A stretch of 54,753 nt of DNA from Nemertoderma westbladi (GCA_032718475.1 JAUCBJ010003755.1:1-54753), one strand, 5' to 3'; numbered from the stretch's first letter, positions 10,401 to 53,849 are shown. Numbers and translations: made by a program. The notes: a model not told the origin generated them from the letters alone.

Positions 10401-12110
10401 TACAGACACGAGTTGTACAAACACGAATTGTACAGACACGAGTTGTACAGACACGAGTTGTGCAGGCACGATTTGTACAGACATGAGTTGTACAGACACG
10501 AATTGTGCAGACATGAGTTGTAGAGACACGAGAAGTGCAGATACTAGTTGTACAGACGCGAGTTGTACAGACAAGAGTTTTACAGACGAGTTGCGCAGAC
10601 ACGAGTTGTACAAACACGAGTTGTACAGACACGAGTTGTACAAACACGAGTTGTACAGACACGAATTTTACAGAAACAAGTTATACAGACACGAGTTGTA
10701 CAGACGAGTTGTGCAGACACGAGTTGTAGAGACACGAGTTGCACAGACACGAGTTGTACAGACACGAGTAGTGCAGACAATAGTTGTAGAGACACGAGTT
10801 GTAGAGACACGAGTTGTACAGACACGAGTAGTGCTGACAATAGTTGTAAAGACACGAGTTGCACAGACACGAGTAGTGCAGACAATAGTTGTACAGACAC
10901 GAGTTGTACAGACACGAGTAGTGCAGACAATAGTTGTAAAGACACGAGTTGTACAGACACGAGTTGTACAGACACGAGTTGTACAGACACGAGTTGTACA
11001 AACACGAGTTGTACAAACACGAGTTGTACAGACTAGTTGTACAAACACGAGTTGTACAGACGAGTTGTGCAGACACGAGTTGTACAGACACGAATTGTGC
11101 AGACACGAGTTGTACAGACACGAGTTGTACAGACACGAGTTGTACAGACACGAGTTGAGCAGACACGAGTTGTACAGCCACGAGTTGTACAGACACGAGT
11201 TGTAGAGACACGAGTTGTACAGACACGAGTTGTACAGACACGAGTTGTACAAACACGAGTTGTACAAACACGAGTTGTACAGACAAGTTGTGCAGACACG
11301 AGTTGTACAGACACGAATTGTGCAGACACGAGTTGTACAGACACGAGTTGTAGAGACACGAGTTGTACAGAAACAAGTTGTACTGACACGAGTTGTACAG
11401 ACACGAGTTGTACAGACACGAGTTGTAGAGACACCAGTTGTACAGACACGAGTTGTACAGACACGAGTTGTACAGACTCGAGTTGTACAGACACGAGATG
11501 TGCAGACACGAGTTGTACAGACACGCGTTGTACAGACACGAGTTGTACAGAGACGAGTTGTACAGACACGAGTAGTGCAGACACTAGTTGTACAGACACG
11601 AGTAGTGCAGACACTGGTTGTAGAGACACGAGTTGTACAGACACGAGTTGTACAGACACGCGATGTACAGACACGAGTTGTGCCGACACGAGTTGTACAG
11701 ACACGAGTTGCACAGACACGAGTTGTACAGACACGAGTTGTACAGACACGAGTAGTGCAGACACTAGTTGTACAGACACGAGTTGTACAGACACGAGTTG
11801 TAGAGACACGAGTTCTATAGACACGAGTTGTACAGACATGAGTAGTGCAGACACGCGTTGTACAGACACGAGTAGTGCAGACACGAATTGTGCAGACACG
11901 AGTTGTACAGACACGAGTTGTACAGACACGAGTTGTACAGACACGAGTAGTGCAGACACGAGTTGTAAAGACACGAGTTGTACAGACACGAGTTGTACAG
12001 ACACGAGTTGTACAGACACGAGTTGTACAGACACGAGTTGTACAGACACGAGTTGTACAGACACGAGTTGTACAGACACGAGTTGTACAGACACGAGTTG
12101 TACAAACACT
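1488..12110. repeat. 15-bp satellite (consensus ACAGACACGAGTTGT), about 10.6 kb and about 700 units, with kb-scale higher-order duplications
   Basis: Direct periodicity. The diagnostic variant CGCTGACAGA recurs at 3781, 5741 and 8391 (spacings 1960 and 2650 bp). TACGGACACG recurs at 7571 and 10221. Confidence 0.99.
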
Positions 12111-12179
12111 ACTGTAGTTATCCACATATGAGTTGTCAATATCTGTTGTGAATCTAAAATAAACAGACCAACCACATAC

Positions 12180-12318
12180 CTCCCCGATAATGCCTATACG
12201 TTTTCTGTCTATATATGATTGGTTGCGAAGGAATTCGATCGCTTAATAATTGGTCATCTGCGTTTCCCAACACCAAGTTGGCCGTAGTCTGCATTACATA
12301 AATCATCTCCATGGAAAC
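12180..12318 (-). pseudogene. DPP4/DPP6/DPP10-like (S9B) exon, start of catalytic domain, with two apparent +1 frameshifts
   Basis: Acceptor ttttacgcag|GT and donor GAG|gtatgt. It reads (S)FHGDDLCNADYGQLGV/GNADDQLL/AIEFLRNQSYIDRKRIGIIGE, matching the family pattern G.QG......LG..E..DQI.A...L....ID..RI.I.G. The three segments lie in three successive frames. Confidence 0.8.
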
Positions 12319-12594
12319 CTGCGTAAAAGTGTAGTGTATAAAAAATACTGAATAAACCTAGCCTACAAGGTGTTACTTACTTAATCTACAGTACACAACC
12401 ACGGTGGCTGATTGCGGCCAGTTGTTTCCATTTGTTTTATTTTACCCCCCCCCCCCCCCCCCCGCACCCCCGCCCCGCCATATGACCAGTATGGAAATAA
12501 ATGTTATATATTTATTTCCAACGTAATACTTAATTGTATTCTTAGGTTTATACTATTTTGTTGCTTAATTCATAAATAATTAGTGATGACTTAA

Positions 12595-13544
12595 GGGGGG
12601 TGGGGGGGGAGGGGGGGGGGAGGGGGGTGTGGAGGGGGGGGGGATGGGGGGGGGAGGCATAACCCCACCCCTAGCAACGTTTTTTGAAATGGCCCATTAC
12701 TTTGGGTTACAGTTTAATATAAAAATTTTATCGTCGCCAGCGAAATGTCTGGAAGGCCAAAAAGTCTCCAACGTAAATTTGAAAATTTTTAGCCTCCCCC
12801 TAGCGGCTGGCGGCAAAATAAGAATTTAACTAAAACCACTACTAGTCACTCAATCTTGGTCCAAATTTCTTTAAATCAACTTTTTTGGATTCAGCACGAT
12901 CGACCTCTACAAAGTTATCTTATAATTTTTAATTATCTAATTTTAATTAAAGTAATTAATTTAGTTAATTAATTATAATATTTTGATTAAAAATTGCTAA
13001 TTACATGAAGTATAAAGAGTATTTTGAAATTCTATAAGATAAATGTTAAAGAACTGCCGACACCATTTCAAATGTCAAATGAGTCTAAAATAATGAGATT
13101 TGGTTGGAAAATGGCGGATGAGTATAGTGTTTTGACGATTAAAAATATATTTCTGAGATGATTGAATTTAAAGTGTGAGATGCTACCCGCTGACCCGCGC
13201 AAAAACTGTTAATACAGTAGGCCTATGTATGTTTATGTAAGAATGTCTGTCAATATCGCCAACATGTCGAGCCAACAAGAAAGCACAAAACAATGCTAAG
13301 ATTTTTGTCACGGGTTTTCCTGGTCAATGATTTCATTTCTGAGGTCAGTTTTAATATTTGATGACTTCCAAATTGTCTGGTTGGCTGTCGATTATATTTT
13401 GACGGACAGACAGACAGGCATAAAAGGTATTTCTAAACGGTTTTCAAATTTGGAATTTGATAAAAATGTGCTCTAGATAAAATAATAAAAACAATTTTGA
13501 AAAAAAATTCGAAAGTGGGGCTACCACCCCCCCCCCCCCTCCCC
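12595..13544. mobile_element. Putative non-autonomous DNA transposon flanked by TTAA (Kolobok-like termini TTAA-GG...CC-TTAA)
   Basis: TTAA at 12591-12594 is followed by G runs, and C runs are followed by TTAA at 13545-13548. The interior is AT-rich and non-coding. TIR similarity beyond the G/C runs is weak. Confidence 0.45.
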
Positions 13545-13828
13545 TTAATGATATGGAACGTAGTACCCCCCCCCCCCCCCCCCTTAAAGATATGGAACGT
13601 AGTACCCCCCCCCCCTTAATGATATGGAACATAGTACCCCCCCCCCCTTAAAGATATGGAACGTAGTACCCCCCCCCCCCCCCCCCTTAAAGATATGGAA
13701 CGTAGTACCCCCACCCCCCCCTTAATGATATGGAACATAGTACCCCCACCCCCCCTTAATGATATGGAACATAGTACCCCCCCACCCCCCCTTAATGATA
13801 TGGAACATAGTACCCCCCCCCCCCCCTA
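13527..13828. repeat. Minisatellite (C)n-TTAA(T/A)GATATGGAAC(G/A)TAGTA, 8 copies with variable poly-C
   Basis: GATATGGAAC occurs 8 times between about 13550 and 13806, separated by C tracts of variable length. Confidence 0.95.
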
Positions 13829-13964: not shown

Positions 13965-14150
13965 TTGAGCCACTGCCGTCCACTTCCGCCACCATCACAT
14001 CCAAAGTGCCAACCAGATGTTGCGCCCACAAGCTGTTGGCAATACCGTCGGTTAATATGGAGCTTTCCGGTCGGGTTACCATAGAAACTAGTAGAGGGTA
14101 TTGGTATTCTTCGTCGTAATTTGGAGGGGTGTAGAGTTTAATCCAAATCC
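13965..14150 (-). CDS. DPP4/DPP6/DPP10-like exon (IWIKLYTPPNYDEEYQYPLLVSMVTRPES...VMVAEVDGSGS)
   Basis: Matches the S9B signature W....PP.FD...KYPLL....GP.SQ........W...L......VA..DGRGS. Acceptor tttatag|GG (phase 1) and probable donor A|gttcgt (phase 1). 186 nt, open, and in phase with both neighbouring exons. Confidence 0.88.
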
Positions 14151-14427
14151 CTATAAAGTACCGGTACAATACATAATAGTAACAACATGTTAGTTAGTCC
14201 TACGTGAGTAGTAGATGTTTGGTCCTCTCGGCGACAGTTGGACCACACTGACTGGCGCCAGACTGTCTGGGTGACACCCAATGTCACCCTATGGGTGTCA
14301 TTGGGTGTCATTGGCGCCAAACTGTCTGGGTGAACCTCCTAATTAGGCTAATTAGACCCTAATTGATAGGTGTCATCAATTAATTACTACAATTAAACCC
14401 TAATAGGTGTCTTATGACTCCTAATTA

Positions 14428-14711
14428 CTACTACTACTACTAGGATCGGCATGCTGCATTGCAGCTGCATTTTTAAGAATGCTGTGCCGGCTTATCGACA
14501 AAATTGTACCACCACAATAATCCATTACAACAACTATCACCCATGACATTTGCTAGATCATCCGCATCTTCAAGGCCAGTGTCCTTTAAGATGCGTCTCA
14601 AGAAAGTCATGGGCTGTCCACAATGCTTGCTTATTCACTCCATGAGGCTGCCAAAGTACAAGATTATGCACTGGCTGGTCCTCACGGCGAAAGCAATGTC
14701 CTGCAAAGCGG
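14428..14711 (-). mobile_element. 5'-truncated, decayed RTE-like non-LTR retrotransposon fragment with (TAG)n tail
   Basis: Minus strand reads RFAGHCFRREDQPVHNLVLWQPHG / GQPMTFLRRILKDTGL (frameshifted). (CTA)n at 14428-14442. 16-bp TSD TTATGACTCCT(A/T)ATTA at 14412-14427 and 14712-14727. Confidence 0.85.
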
Positions 14712-15172
14712 TTATGACTCCTTATTAGGGTTTAATTGATTATCCTAAATGATCAAACCGAGTACGCAATGGTGTCAGTGTTGTCCAACCATCGCCTAGA
14801 GGCCCAAAGGGTGTCATAAGTGACACCGCGGCTCTTTTATTTATTAATACTTATTTAATTGTATTTAATTTTAATTTATTTATTTGTATTTAATTTTAGA
14901 TTTACCAATAATTAGTTTTATATATTACTCTGTAAATGACCTCAATGACTTTCATCTCGCTATACTTAGCCCTAGGGTATACAGCTCCCTTACTGGTAAC
15001 TAATTACTCTTATCTATATCCAGACAGCTTTATCGTTGACCTATGACCCCCAATTAGCTTTAACCAAGCAACAGGTTATTAATAATAGTTGGATCCAAGC
15101 GCCCCCCCCCCCCTCGTGACACCTCTGATTACTAATTACTCTTACCTATATCCAGCCGTCTGCAGTTCCATA

Positions 15173-16595: not shown

Positions 16596-17709
16596 CAACC
16601 TAAACACACGTTGGCAGCAGTACACACACAGCAGTACGTTGATCGCCAACCCTAAACACACAGCAGTACGTTGATCGCCAACCCTAAACACACGCAGTAC
16701 GTTGATCGCCAACCCTAAACACACGCAGTACGTTGATCGCCAACCCTAAACACAAAGCAGTACGTTGATCGCCAACCCTAAACACACAGCAGTACGTTGA
16801 TCGCCAACCCTAAACACACGCAGTACGTTGATCGCCAACCCTAAACACACGCAGTACGTTGATCGCCAACCCTAAACACACACAGTACGTTGATCGCCAA
16901 CCCTAAACACACGCAGTACGTTGATCGCCAACCCTAAACACACGCAGTACGTTGATCGCCAACCCTAAACACACGCAGTACGTTGATCACCAACCCTAAA
17001 CACACGCAGTACGTTGATCGCCAACCCTAAACACACGCAGTACGTTGATCGCCAACCCTAAACACACGCAGTACGTTGATCGCCAACCCTAAACACACGC
17101 AGTACGTTGATCGCCAACCCTAAACACACGCAGTACGTTGATCGCCAACCCTAAACACACGCAGTACGTTGATCGCCAACCCTAAACACACGCAGTACGT
17201 TGATAGCCAACCCTAAACACACGCAGTACGTTGATCGCCAACCCTAAACACACGCAGTACGTTAATCGCCAACCCTAAACACACGCAGTACGTTAATCGC
17301 CAACCCTAAACACATGCAGTACGTTGATCGCCAACCCTAAACACACGCAGTACGTTGATCGCCAACCCTAAACACACGCAGTACGTTGATCACCAACCCT
17401 AAACACACGCAGTACGTTGATCACCAACCCTAAACACACGCAGTACGTTGATCGCCAACCCTAAACACATGCAGTACGTTGATCGCCAACCCTAAACACA
17501 CGCAGTACGTTGATCGCCAACCCTAAACACACGCAGTACGTTGATCACCAACCCTAAACACACGCAGTACGTTGATCACCAACCCTAAACACACGCAGTA
17601 CGTTGATCGCCAACCCTAAACACACGCAGTACGTTGATCGCCAACCCTAAACACACGCAGTACGTTGATCGCCAACCCTAAACACACGCAGTACGTTGAT
17701 CGCCAACCC
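16596..17709. repeat. 31-bp satellite GCAGTACGTTGATCGCCAACCCTAAACACAC, left part (about 35 units)
   Basis: Direct periodicity. Interrupted by the LTR element and resumes in register at 35462. Confidence 0.99.
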
Positions 17710-19905
17710 TGTTACGATATATGGCGCTGTGTACCTATATTAGCCGTCTTACACTATAATTATTAGATAAGCCATAAAGACGCGCAATGATATTTAGATA
17801 AGGAAAGCAAAACGCCCATATTTTTGAATTTATCAATTTTATACAGTATGTAGTCCTACCTAGGTAATTTTGTAGTTAAACATGAGTAATAGTTCCACGG
17901 TAGCAAGTTTCCTATGAAACCCTTGATATAAGCTTGCTGTTATTAGCCTCAATAGGATTAACTGTGTATTGGTTTTAATTTTCTTTATATTTGCGCTAAA
18001 TTAGAGTTTTTATGTACCGCATTATTAGTACCGCTAAATTAAGCATCGCCAAAATTACCATATATGGTGACGATTTGTGATTCCAAGGAGCAATAGGTTC
18101 ACAATCCGGCTTCCTTATTGGCCTAACTGCTTCCAGGTTGGTCTAATGGTAGCGCGGATTGGGGAACCAATCAGAGAACTATTGCATCATCGTTCGTGAA
18201 TCACCTATAAATTGTCGGTATTTCCGGTATGTGCTATTGTAATTCAGGTAATTCCATTGCAATCTAGTGTGTAATTCTTTCTTAGTTTATCCACAATCTC
18301 AGTTTTTGTGTATTTCTGTATTTCCATTTGTTTTCTTGCAATAATTTGCAAATTTGTAATTTCTGCTGATTTCTTGCTGTGTCTCTCACTTCAATCCCAA
18401 TGATTACTGCTAATTACAATCGGAACTATGATTTATACCCTTTAATTAATGGTTCTATGTAATTCTTTTCGATGCGATAATCCCACGGGATTTCTTTATA
18501 CTATCAGACTGTATGATTGCATGCGCCGTTACGGTAGCTACCCATTAGATGGAGGGCTAAGGTATCGGTAGGCGCTGCGGGCGCATCGGGGGGTTAGCGA
18601 CGAAGGGAGTGCAGAGGATTCAAAGGACATCATGCTGGCGGGGGGTCACCGTTGCGGTCGGAAGGTTGGCAGTGTAGAGAGAAGACAGCTCGCTGGTACA
18701 GTAATTAAGGGGCTGATGATCCAGATTTTGTCTCTATTTTGTAGTGTTAGGGGGACAGGAATTGGGTTAGTTAGGAAGCCTACATGTACCCGGGAGAGGC
18801 TTTCATGCACTGCGAACTGTAGATTTCGAGTTATGAACCGTGAATTGTTGAATGCTGATTGTGAATTGTATATTAGGAACTATAAATTGGTAAGTATTAA
18901 TTATTGATTGTTACGCTGATTGGTGTGTTGTTAAAGTGTGCCTGATAAAATCATAAATACTTAGATAGGTGCCCTTTTTTCCCTGATTGATTTCCATTTC
19001 TTAGTTTATGATAATTAATTGCTGATTAGGTCAAAAATAATACAGTATTTAGGCTGTTACTAGTGTGACCCGTTGCGTAATAAATTAGAATTGCGCATTC
19101 TGGAATACTTAGTAATTAGTACGCTGTTACATATTCGTGACTGTAATTAATTAGTAAAATTAAGAATTTGTACGCAGCATAGCTGAGAGTAGTTAAGGTA
19201 ATAATTTGGAGTACTGTAAACTATTCACGCTGGGCGGTTATTTGAATTAGCGGTCAATAAGCTAGATAGCAGTATCCAGTACGCAGAACGCAGTAGTAAA
19301 TTGCTGGCCTAAAGCCAGCCGAAGGCAAGTTTAGACCCATAGTAGGTATCAGTCCCCAATAAAATTCTGCCCTATTTTTTAAATTATTTAAATATTCTCA
19401 CATTCACATATTCCGTTAGGGAACCCCAGTATTTGCGATTAGAGAAAACGCGTTTGTTAGCGCGTTTTAGCAGTAAGATTAGGCCATAAGAATACACTCT
19501 GCCTGTCAAGCCTCTCACACTCGTTTTAAGTAGCTTAGGGAGCCGATTCGGGTTTATTGTTTTGGTTATTCCCACGTGGCTCATATATTCGAACAGTTAG
19601 CTCTCTATCGAGCGATCGGTAGAGAAAGGAACAAGCGATTTGCAGGAGCCATAGAAAATTAGTAAAATATATTTGCGGACGCTATATTAGATATTATTAC
19701 AATAAATTAGCAGCGCCATCCAACGGTAAGTAGCGGTTTTGCATTTAGCAGTCCTACAGTAGTAATAGCACGCTCCTGATCACCCCTAGTTTAACAGTAA
19801 AGCAGTCTTTGTGTCCTTATCGGTTAGGCATGGGGTGGTCTGTTTAACAGTAAAGCACGTTTTGTGTGTCTTTAACAGTTAGTCAAGGTACCCGCTAGTT
19901 TAACA
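17710..19905 (+). repeat. 5' LTR (about 2.2 kb; end at 19905 or 19960)
   Basis: 17710-18350 and about 19625-19905 align with 34551-35461. TATA-like CCTATAAA at about 18205. U5 carries repeats of about 55 bp containing GTTTAACAGTAAAGCA. Confidence 0.9.
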
Positions 19906-20859
19906 GTAAAGCACGTTTGTGTGTCTTTAACAGTTAGTCAAGGTACCCGCTAGTTTAACAGTAAAGCACGAGTTTTGTTTTGCTGTAGGCCTACTGTGTA
20001 CAGTAAGACATACAGTGTATTCATTAGGCTGTTAGTTAGAGTACGGTATTCATTAGTCGCAATACAGTAGTACAGTAGTGCATTAGGCTGATTTGCTGTT
20101 ACTGCGTACGGTAGAAAAGATATTTGTTTTGCTGTACCACATACAGTATTCATTAGGCTGTTAGGTTGGTGTACTATTTTACTTACCGTAATGCGTACAG
20201 TGGATGTACGGTAGTGCGTTTATTAATCGCAAATACAGCAGTTCATTAGGCCGTTAGGGCGAATTGTAAATTAGTAAGTTTTTTGAAAATTTTAGCTAGG
20301 TTTGTGAGAATTCAGTTTCGGTCAAAATTATTTTATCATAAAATCTAGAGTTTTGTACCGGTATGTTAGATAACCGCTTAGTTGTTTTATACCATCTGGA
20401 GATACATGGCGAGACGGAGCTTCTGAGTTTGGGGTTTGTGTGGGTCTGCGGGTTCGGTTTGCAATCAGCGAAGAGCTTGAAACTTTGGACGCGGACTTGG
20501 AATCTCCCAGCAAACAAGATTAGTTGTTCTGTTAGCACCATTGTATTTGTGGAAGCAGTAAAAAATTACCGGTTGTTTAACTGCGAAGCTGAACTCAATT
20601 TATTAGTTAGGATAGTTAGGTTTAGCCGGCCATGGTTTTTTGAATCGCTCAAGTTAGAGAGAGAGAGAGAGTGTCGCAACCCGAAGGTGTAGCCACGCGC
20701 TAGTGGATACATATAATATTTGAAATTAAAATTACGTCGATTAGAGCTATATATAAAATTAGAAATATTTGGGTGGCAAGTTCATTTTTGAATATTTTGA
20801 ATTAGATTCAGAAATTATTTTGTGTCATACCGGTATTTAAATGCTATATAATAACTATA

Positions 20860-21505
20860 CTACTACTACTAGGTCGAGCGAACTCGGACAGTGGAAATGA
20901 GATCCTTCCAGGCTTCCCGATTCTCCATAGTTGTCGCAATTTCGTTTCTCCCAAGTTCAGTATCCCTTTCAAGTTGATCTATATATGTTATGGCAGGTCG
21001 TCCACGACTACGCTTTCCATGAGTTGGTTGCCAGAGAAGTAGATCTAGTATGACCTCGTCTTTACTTCGCCAGCAGTGCCCACTGAATCTTAATCTGCGT
21101 TCACGGAGGGTGGTTGATACAGGTGGTATTGTACCATAAAGCTCGGCGTTTGTCATGTGTTGTCTCCAGCTGATGTTTAGGGCTGCCCTTAGTAGTCTTG
21201 TGTAGCAACCATCAATTCGTTGTTCAAGTGATTTAGTCAGTGTCCAGGTCTCACCCCCGTATAAAAATACACTTTCCACTGTGGCTCGAAAGAACTTGGT
21301 CTTCAGGTGCCTGGAGAGATCTGATTTCCAGATGGTATCCATTTTTGACAGCGCTACCCAAGCCTTTGCTTTCCTAACTTCTATGTCCTTTTTGCTACTC
21401 TCTATCCATGATCCAAGGTACTGGAAGTCATCGACCTGCCTTAGTTGATTATTATCAATGGTTGTCAAGTTTCCATCAACATTAAAGGTCATGAATTCGG
21501 TCTTG
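20860..21505 (-). mobile_element. 5'-truncated RTE-clade LINE nested in the BEL leader (C-terminal RT region, ORF 20869-21492)
   Basis: Motifs KTEFM...FQYLGS...LYGGETWTL...RRLRFSGHCWR...GRP. The stop codon is the first unit of the (TAG)n tail. 12-bp TSD ATAATAACTATA at 20848-20859 and 21506-21517. Confidence 0.95.
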
Positions 21506-21718
21506 ATAATAACTATAGAATTAATATTTTGTTTAAATATTATACCGGTATTTACTATAACTATATCCTATTAAATTCCCAATATTATATTGTAAATTTA
21601 TTTGACATTTTGAGACCAACTAATTATTTGACAAATAATTTAACTGTATTTTCGATTAAATTATATATATCTCGAATTTTGCGAGATTTTAGCCGGAAGG
21701 CAAAATATTATTTAGACT

Positions 21719-24700
21719 ATGAGTGTCTCAGAGAAGGAGGCACTAGAGGACAGCTATGAGACGGCGGCTGGACCGCCAACCGACGATAGCATTAATATAA
21801 CTGTCGACGACAATGCCGACTATGACGACACAGCGAGCGACGCTGACGTAAGTGAACAGGAGGACGAGACAGTAATTAGTGAGGACGAGCAAGGACCTCA
21901 AGTAATAGTATTAGGATCCCCTACCGCTACTGTAAGGAAGGATTGTATAGCAGCCCGGCCAGAGGTGAGTGATAGGGAGAGTAGTATAGCAGAAGCAAGA
22001 GCCCGGAGCCTGGTTTCCAGACCTGTGGGTATGGTAAGTGCCGTGGTCCCAGCGGCTATAAGGAGTACCCGTAGTTCCCGAAATAATCCTTCAAGCCCAC
22101 CGAGTGTGAGTCAGGTAAGCGAGAGAGAATTAGACATCGCGATAAAGAAGAAACTTCGCGCGCATGCCGGACATATAACCCGGACGGCGGATAAGGTAAG
22201 AAAGATGCTAGCCGACTCTGGTAACATTGGAAGGGAAGGGTTAGTAGAGATTAGAAAGGGATACAACTCAGCGTTATTCAAACAGACAGAGGAGCTTGCA
22301 GTCCTAGCGAAGAGAGCAGTGGAGTCTCAGTCGAGCGACGTGGCGACGAGGGTTTACGACAGGGCTTTAGCAGCCTTGTTAGAGCACCGTACGTTATCGG
22401 AGCGATTTCGACGAGTTAGGACAGAGAACTGGTTGCTATGGGCATCACAAGCGCAGGCGACTCAGGTGAGTGACGCAGAGTCGAGAAACTTAGTGGAGCG
22501 GGAAGAAAACCAAGATAAAGAAGAGCGCCGGTATCAGAGGGAAGTTACTAGCTGGCTGATGCAGAGTGGAGTGGTGGTACCAGGCCAGGTGCTACCAACG
22601 ACGGACAACATCCAACAGAGAACGTTAATTCCACCCAACGACGCATTTAGAGACAGTGGCAATTCCCAGGTTAGTCACGCGCGAGGTAAAGTTATATGCG
22701 CTAGATCCCTCGTTTCTCACAACTCGGCGGAAGAGAGAAGACGCCGACTGGACGAACAACAGGCAGAAGTTTTGCGTGCATCGGAAGCACGAAAGGAAGC
22801 CGAACGAGAACAGGAGCGCACACGTAAGTTGGACGCAGAGCTATGAGAATTGGAGGATATAAGTAAGCGCGAACGAGCGGAATGTGAGCAAAGAGAATGC
22901 GAGCTTCAAGCTGAGCGCAAGCGCAAGGAACTCGAACATGAACAGAGAGAACGCGAACTTCAACTTGAACGCGAACAGAAGGAACTCGAGCATGAACAGA
23001 AGAAATGCAAGCTTCAACTCGAACGCGAACGCAAGGAACGCAAACTCGAGATCGAGAAAAGAAGATGCACATTGTATGAAGAGAAGGCGCGTGTGGAAGA
23101 AGAGAGTGCAGCACAACTCGCGAGGGAAGAAGAACAACCTAAACTGGCGCAGTTGGAAAGTGCGAGACTAAACTTAGAGAGCGAAGAACGGACCAGGAAG
23201 GCGAATGAAATCGCCGAGAAAGGGATGCAAATGATCGAAGAATGTGGGGCGAGTGTAGGTACTGAGTTGCGAGAACTGTTCGCACTGCAGAAGGGCGAAC
23301 AGGAGGCAACTCCGACTATACGCGAGTCGACGACGACCAGAATTCCTATACCCGGTCCAGCTATTACGAGTACTCGGATCGCTAAACCGTTCTCTACATA
23401 TCGCACGCCAGTTGGTATTAGTGCTTCACCCATCGTGCAGGATCTGCGCCACCAGGACACCGCACCACTACATACCAAACGAGAGAAAGAAGAGTTTAGA
23501 GGAGAAACTCCGATGGGCCGAGTATTGGGCGAACCGAACCCGTGGGTTTGGAATACGTGGACGGAGCGCTGACCCAGTTCAACGGAGAACTTCCGGGTTA
23601 AACTGGAAGAGGGATCATATGAGAGACAGCGGATTACTCAGATAGAGCCGACTATACAACAGAACCCTAGCCAGGAATTTATTACGAGGGATGAGTTAAG
23701 TGCTAGTTTAGCGCAAGCTATATCGCTGCACATCCAACCTATAACGGACATGCTTAGTAACCTACAGTTAAGGGAAGCAGCCCAGGTAAGAAGTAATTCA
23801 AATCCTAGCAGGCCTGAGTTTAGATGAAGTCCAACCTAGTCAACGAGTATGCATATCGGAGGCAACTATACCACATGGACCTCAGGTAAGAACGCCTGTC
23901 CCTACGATTTATAATCCCAATTTCGAGAATTCGGCGGAAAAGTTTATACAAGAAGCCTGGGTCAGGGCTTCAGCACGCAAACCAACGCGAGCGTTGAGGA
24001 CTGACACAGACTCAAGCGATGAAGAGGAAGACATGAGACGTCAGAAGTCCCAAACCCGAAGGAAAGAAGGACCGACGCGGAGCAGGTAAGTTTGAATCCC
24101 CGGGAAAGGACCAGACTTAATAACCCTGCAGAACTAAACCATTTGTTAACCCGGAACGACGCAACCCTTAGAGACATAGGTAAGTTTGCCGCTAGGCAAG
24201 GACTGCCGATGCAACAACCCCAGAAGTTTATGGGCAACCATAGACATTGGAGGACGTTCAAAACCTATGTCGACGAACAGCTGACCAACAGCACCTTTAC
24301 TCCCAATGAGAAGTTCAACTATCTGCTTCAGATGCTCCATCGAGACCCTAGAGCCATTGCTGACAACTTCGTCGGAAATGAAAGAGCATTTGAGTTAGCA
24401 ATGAAGACGCTTAGCGACATCTACGGGAATAAAACCAAGATGGCACAGTCGATAGTGGAAGACTTGGGTAAAGGCGGAAGGATTACAACTCCGTTAGAGC
24501 TGTTGAACTTGGCGAACGCTATTTCAAATGCATTAGACATCTTGAGGACGGTGAATCTACCTCATCATGGTGATCACGCCGGAGTTTTGAAGAGCATAAT
24601 AAGACGTTTAAACATGCGTTACAGACAGAAATGGTGCAAATTAGAGAATAAGTTGGAGGGTCAAGGTAAGGTGTTGACACTTCAACACATCCATGACATG

Positions 24701-25165
24701 ATAGCCACAGATGCGGTAGCAGAGATGAAATCAAACTTCTCAGAGGAGAATATGAGGGAGTCTAAACCTGTTACCGGTAAGTCAATGGTAAGTTTTGACG
24801 ATGACAGGACCACTGTGACTTTTAACTCAGTAGACAGATATAATTCGAGTACCCCTGCCTTTAGATCAGACTCGCAAGTATGGTCAGGTGAGCAGTCAGA
24901 TAGACCTAAGTTAAAGCAACAGGAGTTACCAGTTGGATTTGTAGGTTGCCAATTCTGTTTACTAAAGGAGGTAAGATCTGACAACCATAAGTTAGACAGT
25001 TGCAGATGGTTCAAAGAATTAACTTCGGAACAGAGAAGAGTTCAAGTGCGGATGTTGGACACCTGTTGGGCATGTCTTGCGCCAGGCCATGTACGGTGGC
25101 AGTGCCTGAACAGTAAGGACAGATGCATGGAATGCGGCAGATTACATCACAAGTTGCTACACTAG
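21719..25165 (+). pseudogene. gag: BEL/Pao gag (acidic N-terminus, long E/R/K coiled coil, DUF1759-like region, triple Cys/His knuckle), interrupted
   Basis: ORF pieces 21719-22846, 22850-23572 and 24092-25165. Motifs F.G....W..F, EKFNYL, CQFC...H....C, CWACLAPGHVRWQC and CMECGRLHHKLLH. Confidence 0.92.
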
Positions 25166-28100: not shown

Positions 28101-28180
28101 TGTCGCTGGCATTAGAGCCATGTAGTATTTATGACAAATTACTAAATTCGTCTGCCTCTTGGCTGACAATTTGTAAATGA
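25166..28180 (+). pseudogene. pol: BEL/Pao pol: partial protease, reverse transcriptase and RNase H (Pao A17-type), interrupted
   Basis: Protease C-terminal motifs MLIGQN and PHAHRTILGW. RT motifs YYLPHH, KVRVVND, GPNL, DIEAMFHQV, FGARDSP and FYMDD. RNase H motifs FSAAS, ELQAA, FYWTDA, NPADITSRG and WLNGPDFL. Confidence 0.95.
27808..27905 (+). repeat. In-frame 21-bp tandem repeat (SLERPEE, about 4.5 copies) in the RNase H-integrase linker
   Basis: CATTGGAGCGGCCTGAAGAGT repeated. Confidence 0.95.
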
Positions 28181-42000: not shown

Positions 42001-45000
42001 TTTGTGGTGCAATCTGGTTGATCGCCAACCCTAAACACACTTGGGATTGTTTGTGGTGCAATCTGGCTGATCGCCAACCCTAAACACACTTGGGATTGTT
42101 TGTGGTGCAATCTGGTTGATCGCCAACCCTAAACACACTTGGGATTGTTTGTGGTGCAATCTGGTTGATCGCCAACCCTAACACACTTGGGATTGTTTGT
42201 GGTGCAATCTGGTTGATCGCCCACCCTAAACACACTTGGGATTGTTTGTGGTGCAATCTGGTTGATCGTCAACCCTAACTCACTTGGGATTGTTTGTGGT
42301 GCAATCTGGTTGATCGCCAACCCTAAACACACTTGGGATTGTTTGTGGTGCAATCTGGCTGATCGCCAACCCTAAACACACTTGGGATTGTTTGTGGTGC
42401 AATCTGGTTGATCGCCAACCCTAACACACTTGGGATTGTTTGTGGTGCAATCTGGTTGATCGCCAACCCTAAACACACTTGGGATTGTTTGTGGTGCAAT
42501 CTGGTTGATCGCCAACCCTAACACACTTGGGATTGTTTGTGGTGCAATCTGGTTGATCGCCAACCCTAAACACACTTGGGATTGTTTGTGGTGCAATCTG
42601 GTTGATCGCCAACCCTAAACATACTTGGGATTGTTTGTGGTGCAATCTGGTTGATCGCCAACCCTAAACACACTTGGGATTGTTTGTGGTGCAATCTGGT
42701 TGATCGCCAACCCTAAACATACTTGGGATTGTTTGTGGTGCAATCTGGTTGATCGCCAACCCTAAACATACTTGGGATTGTTTGTGGTGCAATCTGGTTG
42801 ATCGCCAACCCTAAACACACTTGGGATTGTATGTGGTGCAATCTGGTTGATCGCCAACCCTAACACACTTGGGATTGTTTGTGGTGCAATCTGGTTGATC
42901 GCCAACCCTAAACACACTTGGGATTGTTTGTGGTGCAATCTGGTTGATCGCCAACCCTAAACACACTTGGGATTGTATGTGGTGCAATCTGGTTGATCGC
43001 CAACCCTAACACACTTGGGATTGTTTGTGGTGCAATCTGGTTGATCGCCAACCCTAAACACACTTGGGATTGTTTGTGGTGCAATCTGGCTGATCGCCAA
43101 CCCTAACACACTTGGGATTGTTTGTGGTGCAATCTGGTTGATCGCCAACCCTAAACACACTTGGGATTGTATGTGGGTATGTGGTGTAAACTGGTTGATC
43201 GCCAACCCTAAACACACTTGGGATTGTTTGTGGTGCAATCTGGTTGATCGCCAACCCTAAACACACTTCGGATTGTTTGTGGTGCAATCTCGTTGATCGC
43301 CAACCCTAAACACACTTGGGATTGTTTGTGGTGCAATCTGGTTGATCGCCAACCCTAAACACACTTCGGATTGTTTGTGGTGCAATCTGGTTGATCGCCA
43401 ACCCTAAACACACTTGGGATTGTTTGTGGTGCAATCTGGCTGATCGCCAACCCTAACACACTTGGGATTGTTTGTGGTGCAATCTGGCTGATCGCCAACC
43501 GAACACACTTGGGATTGTTTGTGGTGCAATCTGGTTGATCGCCAACCCTAAACACACTTGGGATTGTTTGTGGTGCAATCTGGCTGATCGCCAACCCTAA
43601 ACACACTTGGGATTGTTTGTGGTGCAATCTGGTTGATCGCCAACCCTAAACACACTTGGGATTGTTTGTGGTGCAATCTGGTTGATCGCCAACCCTAACA
43701 CACTTGGGATTGTTTGTGGTACAATCTGGTTGATCGCCAACCCTAAACACACTTGGGATTGTTTGTGGTGCAATCTGGTTGATCGTCAACCCTAACACAC
43801 TTGGGATTGTTTGTGGTGCAATCTGGTTGATCGCCAACCCTAAACACACTTGGGATTGTTTGTGGTGCAATCTGGCTGATCGCCAACCCTAAACACACTT
43901 GGGATTGTTTGTGGTGCAATCTGGTTGATCGCCAACCCTAAACACACGCAGTACGTTGATCGCCAACCCTAAACACACTTGGGATTGTTTGTGGTGCAAT
44001 CTGGTTGATCGCCAACCCTAAACATACTTGGGATTGTTTGTGGTGCAATCTGGTTGATCGCCAACCCTAAACACACTTGGGATTGTTTGTGGCGCAATCT
44101 GGTTGATCGCCAACCCTAAACACACTTGGGATTGTTTGTGGTGCAATCTGGTTGATCGCCAACAGTAAACACACTTGGGATTGTTTGTGGTGCAATCTGG
44201 TTGATCGCCAACCCTAAACACACTTGGGATTGTATGTGGGTATGTGGTGTAAACTGGTTGATCGCCAACCCTAAACACACTTGGGATTGTATGTGGGTAT
44301 GTGGTGTAAACTGGTTGATCGCCAACCCTAAACACACTTGGGATTGTTTGTGGTGCAATCTGGTTGATCGCCAACCCTAAACACACTTGGGATTGTTTGT
44401 GGTGCAATCTGGTTGATCGCCAACCCTAAACACACTTGGGATTGTTTGTGGTGCAATCTGGTTGATCGCCAACCCTAAACACACTTGGGATTGTTTGTGG
44501 TGCAATCAGGTTGATCGCCAACCCTAAACACACTTGGGATGATTTGTGGTGCAATCTGGTTGATCGCCAACCCTAAACACACTTGGGATTGTTTGTGGTG
44601 TAATCTGGTTGATCGCCAACCCTAAACACACTTGGGATTGTTTGTGGTGCAATCTGGTTGATCGCCAACCCTAAACACACTTGGGATTGTTTGTGGTGCA
44701 ATCTAGTTGATCGCCAACCCTAAACACACTTGGGATTGTTTGTGGTGCAATCTGGTTGATCGCCAACCCTAAACACACTTGGGATTGTATGTGGTTTAAT
44801 CTGGTTGATCGCCAACCCTAAACACACTTGGGATTGTTTGTGGTGCAATCTGGCTGATCGCCAACCCTAACACACTTGGGATTGTTTGTGGTGCAATCTG
44901 GTTGATCGCCAACCCTAAACACACTTAGGATTGTTTGTGGTGCAATCTGGTTGATCGCCAACCCTAAACACACTTGGGATTGTTTGTGGTGCAATCTGGT

Positions 45001-47109
45001 TGATCGCCAACCCTAAACACACTTGGGATTGTTTGTGGTGCAATCTGGTTGATCGCCAACCCTAAACACACTTGGGATTGTTTGTGGTGCAATCTGGTTG
45101 ATCGCCAACCCTAAACACACTTGGGATTGTATGTGGTGTAATCTGGTTGATCGCCAACCCTAAACACACTTGGGATTGTTTGTGGTGCAATCTGGCTGAT
45201 CGCCAACCCTAACACACTTGGGATTGTTTGTGGTGCAATCTGGTTGATCGCCAACCCTAAACACACTTGGGATTGTTTGTGGTGCAATCTGGTTGATCGC
45301 CAACCCTAAACACACTTCGGATTGTTTGTGGTGCAATCTGGTTGATCGCCAACCCTAAACACACTTGGGATTGTTTGTGGTGCAATCTGGTTGATCGCCA
45401 ACCCTAAACACACTTCGGATTGTTTGTGGTGCAATCTGGTTGATCGCCAACCCTAAACACACTTGGGATTGTTTGTGGTGCAATCTGGCTGATCGCCAAC
45501 CCTAACACACTTGGGATTGTTTGTGGTGCAATCTGGCTGATCGCCAACCCTAACACACTTGGGATTGTTTGTGGTGCAATCTGGTTGATCGCCAACCCTA
45601 AACACACTTGGGATTGTTTGTGGTGCAATCTGGCTGATCGCCAACCCTAAACACACTTGGGATTGTTTGTGGTGCAATCTGGTTGATCGCCAACCCTAAA
45701 CACACTTGGGATTGTTTGTGGTGCAATCTGGTTGATCGCCAACCCTAACACACTTGGGATTGTTTGTGGTGCAATCTGGTTGATCGCCCACCCTAAACAC
45801 ACTTGGGATTGTTTGTGGTGCAATCTGGTTGATCGTCAACCCTAACTCACTTGGGATTGTTTGTGGTGCAATCTGGTTGATCGCCAACCCTAAACACACT
45901 TGGGATTGTTTGTGGTGCAATCTGGCTGATCGCCAACCCTAAACACACTTGGGATTGTTTGTGGTGCAATCTGGTTGATCGCCAACCCTAACACACTTGG
46001 GATTGTTTGTGGTGCAATCTGGTTGATCGCCAACCCTAAACACACTTGGGATTGTTTGTGGTGCAATCTGGTTGATCGCCAACCCTAACACACTTGGGAT
46101 TGTTTGTGGTGCAATCTGGTTGATCGCCAACCCTAAACACACTTGGGATTGTTTGTGGTGCAATCTGGTTGATCGCCAACCCTAAACATACTTGGGATTG
46201 TTTGTGGTGCAATCTGGTTGATCGCCAACCCTAAACACACTTGGGATTGTTTGTGGTGCAATCTGGTTGATCGCCAACCCTAAACATACTTGGGATTGTT
46301 TGTGGTGCAATCTGGTTGATCGCCAACCCTAAACATACTTGGGATTGTTTGTGGTGCAATCTGGTTGATCGCCAACCCTAAACACACTTGGGATTGTATG
46401 TGGTGCAATCTGGTTGATCGCCAACCCTAACACACTTGGGATTGTTTGTGGTGCAATCTGGTTGATCGCCAACCCTAAACACACTTGGGATTGTTTGTGG
46501 TGCAATCTGGCTGATCGCCAACCCTAAACACACTTGGGATTGTTTGTGGTGCAATCTGGTTGATCGCCAACCCTAAACACACTTGGGATTGTTTGTGGTG
46601 CAATCTGGTTGATCGCCAACCCTAACACACTTGGGATTGTTTGTGGTGCAATCTGGTTGATCGCCAACCCTAAACACACTTGGGATTGTTTGTGGTGCAA
46701 TCTGGTTGATCGCCAACCCTAAACATACTTGGGATTGTTTGTGGTGCAATCTGGTTGATCGCCAACCCTAAACACACTTGGGATTGTTTGTGGTGCAATC
46801 TGGTTGATCGCCAACCCTAAACATACTTGGGATTGTTTGTGGTGCAATCTGGTTGATCGCCAACCCTAACACACTTGGGATTGTTTGTGGTGCAATCTGG
46901 TTGATCGCCAACCCTAAACACACTTGGGATTGTTTGTGGTGCAATCTGGTTGATCGCCAACCCTAAACACACTTGGGATTGTTTGTGGTGCAATCTGGTT
47001 GATCGCCAATCCTAAACACACTTGGGATTGTTTGTGGTGCAATCTGGTTGATCGCCAACCCTAAACACACTTGGGATTGTTTGTGGTGCAATCTGGTTGA
47101 TCGCCAACC
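36069..47109. repeat. 49-bp satellite AACCCTAAACACACTTGGGATTGTTTGTGGTGCAATCTGGTTGATCGCC (about 225 units; 48- and 56-bp variants; higher-order repeats)
   Basis: Direct periodicity. Shares a 24-bp core with the 31-mer. Variant blocks recur at 1473-bp and 3567-bp offsets. Confidence 0.99.
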
Positions 47110-47172
47110 TCCTTTTCCTTTGAAATAAAATGTAAAACTAAAAATTGTTAATAAATCCAGACAATGACTTAC

Positions 47173-47319
47173 CTTTATTGGTTTGGTTGAGATGAATATA
47201 AGACACATTAGCTAGTCGAAATGTATCGAATAGTTTAGTTAGTTCGAGATTGTCCGAAATTACAACTTTATCTCGATTCGTCAAACTATGAATAGCCAAT
47301 AGATTACACATGCGAGGAC
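47173..47319 (-). CDS. DPP4/DPP6/DPP10-like exon (GPRMCNLLAIHSLTNRDKVVISDNLELTKLFDTFRLANVSYIHLNQTNKG)
   Basis: Acceptor ttgttttttag|GT and donor AAG|gtaagt. 147 nt, open, phase 1-1. Aligns to the GP....LH......VL.DN..L...L region that precedes W....PP in S9B proteins. Confidence 0.85.
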
Positions 47320-48142: not shown

Positions 48143-51100
48143 TCAATGGTAAATACGGATGTCACCACATGAAAGCCCCTCTATGGTGAATACGGATGTC
48201 ACCACATGAAAGCCCCTCTATGGTGAATACGGATGTCACCACATGAAAGCCCCTCTATGGTGAATACGGATGTCACCACATGAAAGCCCCTCAATGGTAA
48301 ATACGGATGTCACCACATGAAAGCCCCTCAATGGTGAATACGGATGTCACCACATGAAAGCCCCTCTATGGTGAATACGGATGTCACCACATGAAAGCCC
48401 GTCAATGGTGAATACGGATGTCACCACATGAAAGCCCCTCAATGGTAAATACGGATGCCACCACATGAAAGCCCCTCAATGGTAAATACGGATGCCACCA
48501 CATGAAAGCCCCTCAATGGTAAATACGGATGTCACCACATGAAAGCCCCTCAATGGTAAATACGGATGTCACCACATGAAAGCCCCTCAATGGTGAATAC
48601 GGATGTCACCACATGAAAGCCCCTCAATGGTGAATACGGATGTCACCACATGAAAGCCCCTCTATAGTGAATACGGATGTCACCACATGAAAGCCCCTCA
48701 ATGGTGAATACGGATGTCACCACATGAAAGCCCCTCTATGGTGAATACGGATGTCACCACATGAAAGCCCCTCAATGGTGAATACGGATGTCACCACATG
48801 AAAGCCCCTCAATGGTGAATACGGATGTCACCACATGAAAGCCCCTCAATGGTAAATACGGATGTCACCACATGAAAGCCCCTCAATGGTAAATACGGAT
48901 GTCACCACATGAAAGCCCCTCAATGGTAAATACGGATGTCACCACATGAAAGCCCCTCAATGGTGAATACGGATGTCACCACATGAAAGCCCCTCAATGG
49001 TGAATACGGATGTCACCACATGAAAGCCCCTCTATGGTGAATACGGATGTCACCACATGAAAGCCCCTCAATGGTGAATACGGATGTCACCACATGAAAG
49101 CCCCTCTATGGTGAATACGGATGTCACCACATGAAAGCCCCTCAATGGTGAATACGGATGTCACCACATGAAAGCCCCTCAATGGTGAATACGGATGTCA
49201 CCACATGAAAGCCCCTCAATGGTAAATACGGATGTCACCACATGAAAGCCCCTCAATGGTGAATACGGATGTCACCACATGAAAGCCCCTCTATGGTGAA
49301 TACGGATGTCACCACATGAAAGCCCCTCAATGGTGAATACGGATGTCACCACATGAAAGCCCCTCAATGGTAAATACGGATGTCACCACATGAAAGCCCC
49401 TCAATGGTGAATACGGATGTCACCACATGAAAGCCCCTCTATGGTAAATACGGATGTCACCACATGAAAGCCCCTCAATGGTAAATACGGATGTCACCAC
49501 ATGAAAGCCCCTCAATGGTGAATACGGATGTCACCACATGAAAGCCCCTCAATGGTAAATACGGATGTCACCACATGAAAGCCCCTCAATGGTGAATACG
49601 GATGTCACCACATGAAAGCCCCTCTATGGTAAATACGGATGTCACCACATGAAAGCCCCTCAATGGTAAATACGGATGTCACCACATGAAAGCCCCTCAA
49701 TGGTGAATACGGATGTCACCACATGAAAGCCCCTCAATGGTGAATACGGATGTCACCACATGAAAGCCCCTCAATGGTAAATACGGATGTCACCACATGA
49801 AAGCCCCTCAATGGTGAATACGGATGTCACCACATGAAAGCCCCTCAATGGTGAATACGGATGTCACCACATGAAAGCCCCTCAATGGTAAATACGGATG
49901 TCACCACATGAAAGCCCCTCAATGGTGAATACGGATGTCACCACATGAAAGCCCCTCAATGGTAAATACGGATGTCACCACATGAAAGCCCCTCAATGGT
50001 GAATACGGATGTCACCACATGAAAGCCCCTCAATGGTGAATACGGATGTCACCACATGAAAGCCCCTCAATGGTGAATACGGATGTCACCACATGAAAGC
50101 CCCTCAATGGTAAATACGGATGTCACCACATGAAAGCCCCTCAATGGTGAATACGGATGTCACCACATGAAAGCCCCTCAATGGTAAATACGGATGTCAC
50201 CACATGAAAGCCCCTCAATGGTGAATACGGATGTCACCACATGAAAGCCCCTCAATGGTAAATACGGATGTCACCACATGAAAGCCCCTCAATGGTGAAT
50301 ACGGATGTCACCACATGAAAGCCCCTCAATGGTAAATACGGATGTCACCACATGAAAGCCCCTCAATGGTGAATACGGATGTCACCACATGAAAGCCCCT
50401 CAATGGTGAATACGGATGTCACCACATGAAAGCCCCTCAATGGTGAATACGGATGTCACCACATGAAAGCCCCTCAATGGTAAATACGGATGTCACCACA
50501 TGAAAGCCCCTCAATGGTGAATACGGATGTCACCACATGAAAGCCCCTCAATGGTAAATACGGATGTCACCACATGAAAGCCCCTCAATGGTGAATACGG
50601 ATGTCACCACATGAAAGCCCCTCAATGGTAAATACGGATGTCACCACATGAAAGCCCCTCAATGGTAAATACGGATGTCACCACATGAAAGCCCCTCAAT
50701 GGTGAATACGGATGTCACCACATGAAAGCCCCTCAATGGTAAATACGGATGTCACCACATGAAAGCCCCTCAATGGTGAATACGGATGTCACCACATGAA
50801 AGCCCCTCAATGGTAAATACGGATGTCACCACATGAAAGCCCCTCAATGGTGAATACGGATGTCACCACATGAAAGCCCCTCAATGGTGAATACGGATGT
50901 CACCACATGAAAGCCCCTCAATGGTGAATACGGATGTCACCACATGAAAGCCCCTCAATGGTAAATACGGATGTCACCACATGAAAGCCCCTCAATGGTG
51001 AATACGGATGTCACCACATGAAAGCCCCTCAATGGTGAATACGGATGTCACCACATGAAAGCCCCTCAATGGTGAATACGGATGTCACCACATGAAAGCC

Positions 51101-53030
51101 CCTCAATGGTGAATACGGATGTCACCACATGAAAGCCCCTCAATGGTGAATACGGATGTCACCACATGAAAGCCCCTCAATGGTAAATACGGATGTCACC
51201 ACATGAAAGCCCCTCAATGGTGAATACGGATGTCACCACATGAAAGCCCCTCAATGGTGAATACGGATGTCACCACATGAAAGCCCCTCAATGGTGAATA
51301 CGGATGTCACCACATGAAAGCCCCTCAATGGTAAATACGGATGTCACCACATGAAAGCCCCTCAATGGTGAATACGGATGTCACCACATGAAAGCCCCTC
51401 AATGGTGAATACGGATGTCACCACATGAAAGCCCCTCAATGGTAAATACGGATGTCACCACATGAAAGCCCCTCAATGGTGAATACGGATGTCACCACAT
51501 GAAAGCCCCTCAATGGTAAATACGGATGTCACCACATGAAAGCCCCTCAATGGTGAATACGGATGTCACCACATGAAAGCCCCTCAATGGTGAATACGGA
51601 TGTCACCACATGAAAGCCCCTCAATGGTGAATACGGATGTCACCACATGAAAGCCCCTCAATGGTAAATACGGATGTCACCACATGAAAGCCCCTCAATG
51701 GTGAATACGGATGTCACCACATGAAAGCCCCTCAATGGTAAATACGGATGTCACCACATGAAAGCCCCTCAATGGTGAATACGGATGTCACCACATGAAA
51801 GCCCCTCAATGGTGAATACGGATGTCACCACATGAAAGCCCCTCAATGGTGAATACGGATGTCACCACATGAAAGCCCCTCAATGGTAAATACGGATGTC
51901 ACCACATGAAAGCCCCTCAATGGTGAATACGGATGTCACCACATGAAAGCCCCTCAATGGTAAATACGGATGTCACCACATGAAAGCCCCTCAATGGTGA
52001 ATACGGATGTCACCACATGAAAGCCCCTCAATGGTAAATACGGATGTCACCACATGAAAGCCCCTCAATGGTAAATACGGATGTCACCACATGAAAGCCC
52101 CTCAATGGTGAATACGGATGTCACCACATGAAAGCCCCTCAATGGTGAATACGGATGTCACCACATGAAAGCCCCTCAATGGTAAATACGGATGTCACCA
52201 CATGAAAGCCCCTCAATGGTAAATACGGATGTCACCACATGAAAGCCCCTCAATGGTGAATACGGATGTCACCACATGAAAGCCCCTCAATGGTAAATAC
52301 GGATGTCACCACATGAAAGCCCCTCAATGGTGAATACGGATGTCACCACATGAAAGCCCCTCAATGGTGAATACGGATGTCACCACATGAAAGCCCCTCA
52401 ATGGTAAATACGGATGTCACCACATGAAAGCCCCTCAATGGTGAATACGGATGTCACCACATGAAAGCCCCTCAATGGTGAATACGGATGTCACCACATG
52501 AAAGCCCCTCAATGGTAAATACGGATGTCACCACATGAAAGCCCCTCAATGGTGAATACGGATGTCACCACATGAAAGCCCCTCAATGGTGAATACGGAT
52601 GTCACCACATGAAAGCCCCTCAATGGTAAATACGGATGTCACCACATGAAAGCCCCTCAATGGTGAATACGGATGTCACCACATGAAAGCCCCTCAATGG
52701 TAAATACGGATGTCACCACATGAAAGCCCCTCAATGGTGAATACGGATGTCACCACATGAAAGCCCCTCAATGGTGAATACGGATGTCACCACATGAAAG
52801 CCCCTCAATGGTGAATACGGATGTCACCACATGAAAGCCCCTCAATGGTAAATACGGATGTCACCACATGAAAGCCCCTCAATGGTGAATACGGATGTCA
52901 CCACATGAAAGCCCCTCAATGGTAAATACGGATGTCACCACATGAAAGCCCCTCAATGGTGAATACGGATGTCACCACATGAAAGCCCCTCAATGGTAAA
53001 TACGGATGTCACCACATGAAAGCCCTTCTA
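48143..53030. repeat. 37-bp satellite AATGGT(A/G)AATACGGATGTCACCACATGAAAGCCCCTC (about 132 units, highly homogeneous)
   Basis: Direct 37-bp periodicity. Essentially only two frequent variant positions. Confidence 0.99.
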
Positions 53031-53134
53031 TCAAACTACGAAAACATATTTAAACATATTTTTTTGAAAAATATTTTTTTGCCGTTGGGCTTAATAGTCC
53101 CCTTAATTTGGTTTTGTAATTTATCTTAAAATAC

Positions 53135-53255
53135 CTAAACAACGGAGTAGAAAGCCGGTTCCATCGTTGTTGACATCAGCCTGGTACACAGAGCACTTAT
53201 CGTAGTTGAGGCCGCAGGTGTGGCAGACTACCACGGTTGGGGAGTCAGTGTTGAT
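53135..53255 (-). CDS. DPP4/DPP6/DPP10-like exon (INTDSPTVVVCHTCGLNYDKCSVYQADVNNDGTGFLLRCLG)
   Basis: Acceptor ctgcag|ATC and donor TTAG|gtattt. Cys pattern C..C......C..Y.........L.C.GP of the S9B beta-propeller end. Phase 0-1. Confidence 0.88.
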
Positions 53256-53402
53256 CTGCAGTTGATAATATAAATAATTAATCTTTAGTAAATCAGAAAT
53301 AATAAATCATTATTAAATTACAGAAAAAAATACTTAAACGTATTGAAGCGATTGGCGATGCGAATATTACACCGCAGAATGTGATTGCGATGCTCCAATA
53401 TT

Positions 53403-53795
53403 ACGCCACCGCAGTAACACATAATACGCCGCCGCAGTAACACATAATACGCCGCCGCAGTAACACATAATACGCCGCCGCAGTAACACATAATACGCCG
53501 CCGCAGTAACACATAATACGCCGCCGCAGTAACACATAATACGCCGCCGCAGTAACACATAATACGCCGCCGCAGTAACACATAATACGCCGCTGCAGTA
53601 ACACATAATACGCCGCCGCAGTAACACATAATACGCCGCCGCAGTAACACATAATACGCCGCCGCAGTAACACATGATAACGCCGCCGCAGTAACACATA
53701 TAACGCCGCTGCAGTAACACATAATACGCCGCCGCAGTAACACATAATACGCCGCCGCAGTAACAGATAATACGCCGCCGCAGTAACACATAATA
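53403..53795. repeat. 23-bp minisatellite CGCCGCCGCAGTAACACATAATA (about 17 units)
   Basis: Direct periodicity. Confidence 0.98.
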
Positions 53796-53849
53796 AGGCG
53801 ACTTTGTTTGTTTTCTCCAGCCTGGGGAGGATGAGCAGTTGGATGCTAC

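Follow-up and report, generated by a model that had tools for sequence, protein, structure and literature searches.

Five unrelated tandem arrays close to the donor sites of one Nemertoderma westbladi gene

Each of five introns in a minus-strand gene of Nemertoderma westbladi carries a tandem array of its own, beginning 54, 109, 63, 137 and 70 nt past the donor as located by TRF, within a 54,753-nt stretch of DNA that was analysed as a whole (the window). The sequence-only reading of this DNA had placed an array in every intron about 55-140 nt past the donor, at 55, 105, 63, 136 and 70 nt, and the recomputed distances agree. That reading had also taken the five donor-proximal units to be mutually unrelated, which pairwise comparison of the array segments bore out: among 21 pairs drawn from 7 segments, p<0.05 was obtained only for the 49-mer/31-mer and 31/31 pairs. 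As for the shared donor-side polarity, the positions hold in 5 of 5 introns but an excess over chance is not established (p 0.002-0.22, depending on the null). The five arrays are unrelated, and with a probability of roughly 0.6 their closeness to donors comes from the geometry of short introns, from a protected margin that is narrower at the donor than at the acceptor, and from small numbers.

The host gene and its exons

From its sequence, the window is assigned to the middle part of a gene of the DPP4/FAP/DPP6/DPP10 (peptidase S9B) family on the minus strand. Five exons, all on that strand, were delineated, each preceded by AG and followed by a GT donor (at 53849, 53134, 47172, 13964 and 12179), and a single open frame runs through E1-E4. 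Homology search with E4 (13965..14150, 186 nt) matched DPP4 at E 4e-6, while of three further searches for E4 homologues one gave no match, one gave six uninformative matches and one led to peptidase S9 at scores below 0.9. E2 (53135..53255, 121 nt) matched DPP4 weakly at residues 400-434 of 1orv (E 0.056), and E3 (47173..47319, 147 nt), which has a perfect-consensus donor, gave no DPP match when searched alone against structures. In 1orv numbering, however, residue 39 of E2 corresponds to 434 and residue 2 of E4 to 486, a gap of exactly the 49 codons of E3, so that E2-E4 are supported by DPP4 homology together with this exact collinear fit. E5 (12180..12318, 139 nt in the window) has weak S9/DPP-IV matches. 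E1 (53850..53874) is a candidate micro-exon of 25 nt reading AALQGGVQ; its phase, and the intron positions of the gene, are presumed to match those of vertebrate DPP4.

The E4/E5 junction is the sole read-supported one. A contig of 2,226 nt (X4 record 25) aligns with 14152-13962 and then directly with 12315-12179, which confirms donor 13964 and acceptor 12319. Run X4 carries the label 'DNA?', but record 25 behaves as cDNA and is taken to be cDNA-like because X4 shows zero depth over the unique bins of introns. In this contig the repeat-filled intron 4 is spliced out normally. E5 in the window has two extra bases relative to both this contig and a DNA contig (X1 record 1), each of which aligns to E5 with 2 gaps and is otherwise identical. 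A pseudogene, proposed on account of these bases, is less likely, both independent contigs being free of them; a rare null allele is possible. In this family the G-W-S-Y-G-G catalytic motif marks an active enzyme and its loss a DPP6/DPP10-like protein. E5 ends in ...IGIIGE at the point where DPP4 has W, and the serine codon would fall in the next exon, beyond the window. A YGG-type motif marks the exon expected after E5, and a search for it in 1-1494 yielded no convincing candidate. No tRNA genes were found in the window, and Rfam returned only two matches, driven by poly-G/C and far under threshold.

Tandem arrays, their margins and their turnover

All arrays located by TRF are read on the minus strand, in introns of 0.6-33 kb with repeat units of 15-49 nt. 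In intron 1 a 23-mer array of about 17 copies (53398..53795) lies 54 nt from the donor and 142 nt from the acceptor, and in intron 2 a 37-mer array of about 132 copies (48143..53025) lies 109 nt from the donor and 823 nt from the acceptor, and all of the 131 units into which it was split measure 37 nt exactly. Intron 3 holds a composite 49-mer/31-mer array (35462..47109), 63 nt from the donor, in which a 49-mer stretch (36045-47109) runs on into a 31-mer stretch (35462-36068), the two units having a common 24-nt core. A further 31-mer block, 16624..17709, is the acceptor-side remainder of the same array, which was split by a retrotransposon. Intron 4 contains a poly-G minisatellite of about 36-nt units (13530..13827, about 8 copies) at 137 nt from its donor, and intron 5 a 15-mer array of about 710 copies (1495..12109) at 70 nt. 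The intron upstream of E1 has a single visible array, a small poly-C/15-33-mer one of 86 nt (53983..54068; TRF score about 150), which the sequence-only reading had passed over; about 109 nt separate it from the E1 acceptor, and it is a counter-example to donor polarity. With head-to-tail units inside the 10-60 nt range and a wholly intronic position, the arrays are ordinary intronic minisatellites or satellites. The large arrays sum to 28,928 nt, which is 53% of the window and, once the retrotransposon is set apart, about 80% of the intron sequence; the introns are thus inflated by arrays, as had been claimed.

The retrotransposon, 17710..35461 on the plus strand, was inserted in the 31-mer array and is a BEL/Pao LTR element by its TG...CA ends, 5-nt target duplication and Pao-type gag/pol domains (PF03564, PF05380, PF17921, PF18701). 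Its LTRs are 98.3% alike over 643 nt, its ORFs are broken by stops and frame changes, and its relatives occur in many animal phyla at identities of up to 41%.

Several features of the arrays bear on how they arose and changed. On the donor side of the 15-mer array, decayed copies come within about 26-40 nt of the splice site (p=0.033 for this flank, one of five, without correction), and decayed unit-like sequence also lies at the acceptor edges of the 23-mer and 31-mer arrays; in these three arrays the decayed edge copies fit birth in place. At the edges of the 37-mer and 49-mer arrays, microhomology is weak or absent. Higher-order duplications were found in the 49-mer array (3,567 nt, 99.6% identity) and in the 15-mer array (1,960, 2,650 and 4,610 nt, about 99% identity; 99.1-99.6% over the blocks of both arrays). 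Such blocks are the signature expected from recent unequal exchange, and an assembly artefact is possible. Representative queries of the four large units against the non-array DNA of the window gave best matches of at most 12 nt, the 15-mer query having fallen on a variant block, and metagenome pattern scans for a high-copy repeat and for the 31/49-mer core gave 0 matches.

Repeated DNA is found near acceptors as well. Contig depth, taken from four runs of three studies, covers 12115-14800 only, where it bears on the fourth intron and the last part of the third; it is summed over all contigs and does not represent copy number, and the contigs are short-read, none of them spanning an array. Depth was about 20 on exons and 7-10 on the donor flank of intron 4. 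No X1 bin between 12385 and 13734 fell below 105, and at positions from 14185 on depth rose as high as 2.2 million. The last of these values marks a very high-copy interspersed repeat (14249..14800), whose near end is about 98 nt away from the acceptor of E4. Single-copy contigs end at 12430, about 112 nt from the E5 acceptor, and at 14248, about 98 nt from that of E4. Altogether, at 4 of 5 acceptors the nearest repeated DNA is about 98-142 nt away (109 nt in the upstream intron, 142 nt in intron 1, and the 98 and 112 nt just given), the other being that of intron 2, where no TRF array lies in the 823 nt before the acceptor. The non-repeat margins at donor and acceptor come to 54 and 142 nt in intron 1, 63 and 98 nt in intron 3, and 137 and about 112 nt in intron 4, in which every bin between the two margins is multi-copy by depth. 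Distances to the first repeat are shorter at donors than at acceptors, though not significantly so (Mann-Whitney two-sided p 0.12). With repeats near the splice sites of both sides, the introns therefore resemble short unique margins around a repeat-packed middle. One oddity remains, and it is unusual: on the donor side the first item is a tandem array each time.

Donor polarity and its possible causes

The polarity was evaluated under two nulls and a sign test. Under the uniform null, arrays were collapsed to points and placed uniformly across the remaining intron sequence, with intron 5 counted just to window base 1 since its acceptor falls outside the window; Fisher combination gave p 0.005 for the five arrays of the sequence-only reading, 0.010 for arrays of at least 250 nt and 0.041 for all TRF arrays, and 0.008 without intron 1 or 0.014 with introns 2, 3 and 5 only. 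This null is generous because introns grow by large insertions, which land on the longer side. An insertion-growth null was simulated in 15 settings with assumed parameters that include insertion sizes. When ancestral introns measured 150-300 nt, p came to 0.027-0.15; when they measured 500-1000 nt, it came to 0.002-0.016. By two-sided sign test, 5 of 5 gives 0.0625, and 5 of 6, with the acceptor-side array of the upstream intron included, gives 0.22. A test of whether every array starts no further than 137 nt from its donor (p 0.0001-0.002) was set aside, its threshold having been taken from the same data. All five introns belong to a single gene, and the pattern was singled out post hoc in a scan of very large extent. 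Donor polarity beyond chance is thus suggestive, and five cases in a single gene cannot demonstrate a special splice-site-linked mechanism or sustain a claim of donor-linked minisatellite birth.

In the account favoured here, each array would have been born by local duplication inside a probably short ancestral intron. Slippage and unequal exchange would then have lengthened it, a kind of growth that leaves the donor-side edge in place. Later insertions, including transposons, would land in arrays and mostly on the side already longer, so that any initial asymmetry would be exaggerated, and selection would keep the margins clear, with less room probably needed at donors than at acceptors. Counting for this account are the unrelated units, with no match above 12 nt in the non-array DNA of the window, the decayed edges, the 99.1-99.6% blocks, the short margins at both ends, the lack of a significant difference between donor and acceptor distances, the normal splicing of intron 4 in the contig, the growth-null values obtained with 150-300-nt ancestral introns (p 0.027-0.15), and the deficit of mammalian transposons close to exons, greater at acceptors than at donors, in the available text of PMC3088655. 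Against it are the growth-null values below 0.02 when ancestral introns are at least 500 nt, and the weak or absent microhomology at the edges of the 37-mer and 49-mer arrays; the estimate of short ancestral introns is moreover somewhat circular, because it partly reuses the donor distances. The donor/acceptor asymmetry of PMC3088655, for its part, was described for retrotransposons of mammals over short distances, and it leaves unexplained why large arrays are missing from the 800-2,500 nt that precede acceptors.

The sequence-only reading had proposed instead that a mechanism coupled to transcription or splicing seeds tandem amplification next to 5' splice sites and drives intron gigantism. 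As a rival account, such seeding, by polymerase pausing, R-loops or breaks at the edge of the exon nucleosome, would act just downstream of those sites throughout this genome. An array at 54-137 nt from 5 of 5 donors, with five unrelated units, would be expected from such a process, and the donor-side placement of all five large arrays, at p 0.005-0.04 under the uniform null, speaks for it and against the favoured account. Four of 6 unit types are also G-rich on the sense strand (GC skew +0.32 for the 23-mer, +0.13 for the 37-mer, +0.57 for the 36-mer and +0.38 for the 31-mer). The R-loop prediction nevertheless fails for the two largest arrays, of about 11 kb each, because their skew is -0.04 (49-mer) and -0.16 (15-mer), and G4 motifs occur in the poly-G array only. 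The start of repeated DNA close to 4 of 5 acceptors, the acceptor-side array of the upstream intron and the after-the-fact choice of one gene also argue against donor-coupled mutation, and a mechanism of this kind was not found in a full-text literature search. Such seeding appears unlikely, and a shade less likely again is its widest form, in which unrelated arrays preferentially seeded 50-150 nt past 5' splice sites genome-wide, by transcription- or splicing-coupled mutation, would be the main engine of intron growth, with mirage minisatellites (discussed below) as the donor-including subset.

Satellites borne by transposons occur, and the arrays could have been carried in by, or grown from, transposon ends (Helitron/MITE-type internal repeats), their position then reflecting insertion and not the splice site. 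The region of the poly-G minisatellite, with a depth of 116-713 as against about 20, abuts other multi-copy DNA, and the second poly-C array, upstream of E1, lies beside repeat-like DNA, but with matching at 85% likeness the depth values on poly-G runs may be non-specific. Neither shared termini nor target duplications were seen around the four large arrays, and the sole clear element, BEL/Pao, was inserted into an array already in existence. For the arrays as a whole an origin from transposons is quite improbable; the poly-G array is the main case in which it is plausible. Retention of the arrays as intronic splicing enhancers, or as aids in defining short upstream exons, has the T-rich sense strand of 4 of 5 donor-proximal arrays in its favour, and precedents in the human ABCA7 intron-18 VNTR, whose length correlates with exon skipping (available text of PMC6660495), and in a C. 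elegans minisatellite enriched near multiply spliced exons (available text of PMC4039745). The units, however, have no motif in common and copy no splice junction, so that the influence on exon definition suggested by the sequence-only reading found no support; multi-kb duplications that are almost identical, together with the recent arrival of a retrotransposon, indicate rapid turnover; and the 49-mer array holds about 200 donor-like 9-mers at 7/9, a burden and not an aid. A splicing role is accordingly very improbable, and local birth in short introns, followed by growth and by insertion on the longer side, is preferred.

Comparison with known systems

Intronic minisatellites, satellite-inflated introns (PMC6508621, in the part available) and donor/acceptor asymmetry of insertions are already known. 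A full-text search that covered few subscription papers found none describing, in invertebrates, a bias towards the donor side among arrays that do not copy the junction, and bioRxiv 10.1101/2021.07.19.452908, PMC2812944 and PMC6823432, in their available portions, have no bearing on donor bias. Should such a bias hold genome-wide, minisatellite birth would be linked to co-transcriptional events, which is directly testable. The gene described here is a clear example in which tandem DNA, and not transposons alone, builds most of the intron length, and it splices normally across at least one repeat-filled intron.

The accessible part of PMC3087553 describes amphioxus 'mirage' minisatellites in the globins BflGb6/BflGb9 and in Adh3, the units of which copy an exon-intron junction and the mechanism of origin of which it calls unclear. 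As in amphioxus, these are invertebrate intronic tandem arrays beside exons that splicing apparently tolerates; unlike mirages, the arrays begin 54-137 nt inside the intron, and the best junction match is a borderline 8 nt. Comparison of units with exon ends gave p 0.12-0.98 in all five cases, and comparison with junctions gave 0.048 (the 8-nt match), 0.064, 0.23, 0.69 and 0.92. Since none of the units reproduces the end of an exon or a junction, the arrays are not mirages of the amphioxus type, and that class was rejected.

The repeat-free margins resemble the transposon-poor zones that flank mammalian exons. According to the available sections of PMC3088655, the 50-100 nt next to an exon hold a deficit of transposons, and acceptors have fewer of them nearby than donors do, an effect ascribed to selection. 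A margin of about 50-100 nt is common to both, although those zones were measured on mammalian transposons and the present ones on tandem arrays in another animal. In the gigantic introns of the Drosophila Y, as far as the available parts of PMC6508621 and PMC11207136 go, tandem DNA likewise makes up most of the intron length; those introns reach megabases, whereas the present ones span 0.6-33 kb and give no sign of a special expression programme. The ABCA7 intron 18 VNTR of humans, an intronic array of 0.3 to >10 kb, falls in the same size range as the arrays here (PMC6660495, in the portion available), but it represents one locus with a measured effect on splicing, whereas in N. westbladi five unrelated arrays, known from sequence, occupy the introns of one gene.

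Structure and possible cargo of the BEL/Pao element

The BEL/Pao LTR retrotransposon of intron 3 (17710-35461, plus strand) is bounded by LTRs of about 2.2 kb (17710-19960) and about 0.9 kb (34551-35461), which are unequal in that an internal stretch of 1.3 kb is missing from the 3' copy, and which are 98.3% identical over the part common to both. Nested in its 5' region, on the minus strand, is a LINE-like fragment (20869-21567) similar to the 3' end of a reverse transcriptase ORF; we take it to be of the LINE type, and its profile evidence consists only of a weak match to DUF6451.

Downstream of the integrase region and ahead of the 3' LTR, the element has about 3.3 kb of additional, interrupted ORFs (30365-33714, plus strand). 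For one piece (31947-32483), searches of Pfam and PDB returned no matches, and the atlas pointed to the 3'-5' exonuclease family PF01612 with a score of 0.88, below 0.9 and so counted as a lead only. Another piece (33055-33714) contains two CCHC-like knuckles, as judged by eye. The element may carry an exonuclease-like cargo worth a look.

Exon 5, a candidate micro-exon and a small duplication

Two extra bases disrupt the reading frame of exon 5 (12180-12318, minus strand), and are absent from both a DNA contig and a cDNA-like contig; they are likely assembly errors. A null allele is also possible, because no length errors occur in 131 units of the neighbouring 37-mer array. A candidate micro-exon of 25 nt (53850-53874, minus strand) would preserve the frame into exon 2. 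Elsewhere, a 234-nt unit is tandemly duplicated at 15258-15805 (2.3 copies, 95%), and part of one more copy occupies 15160-15238.

Donor-like motifs in the 49-mer array

The 49-mer array (36045-47109, minus strand) contains about 200 donor-like 9-mers, each matching the consensus at 7/9 positions and equalling or exceeding four real donors of the gene; the gene's sole perfect donor belongs to the intron holding this array. The hexamer TTAGGG is present in the 49-mer core.

The window end beyond the 15-mer array

Beyond the 15-mer array of intron 5, the sequence at 1-1494 resembles another mobile element and has a TG start on the minus strand. Should this element be an insertion within the array, the 15-mer repeats may resume past the window end. 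The same sequence includes a 53-mer tandem that is similar to the 55-mer of the BEL LTR.
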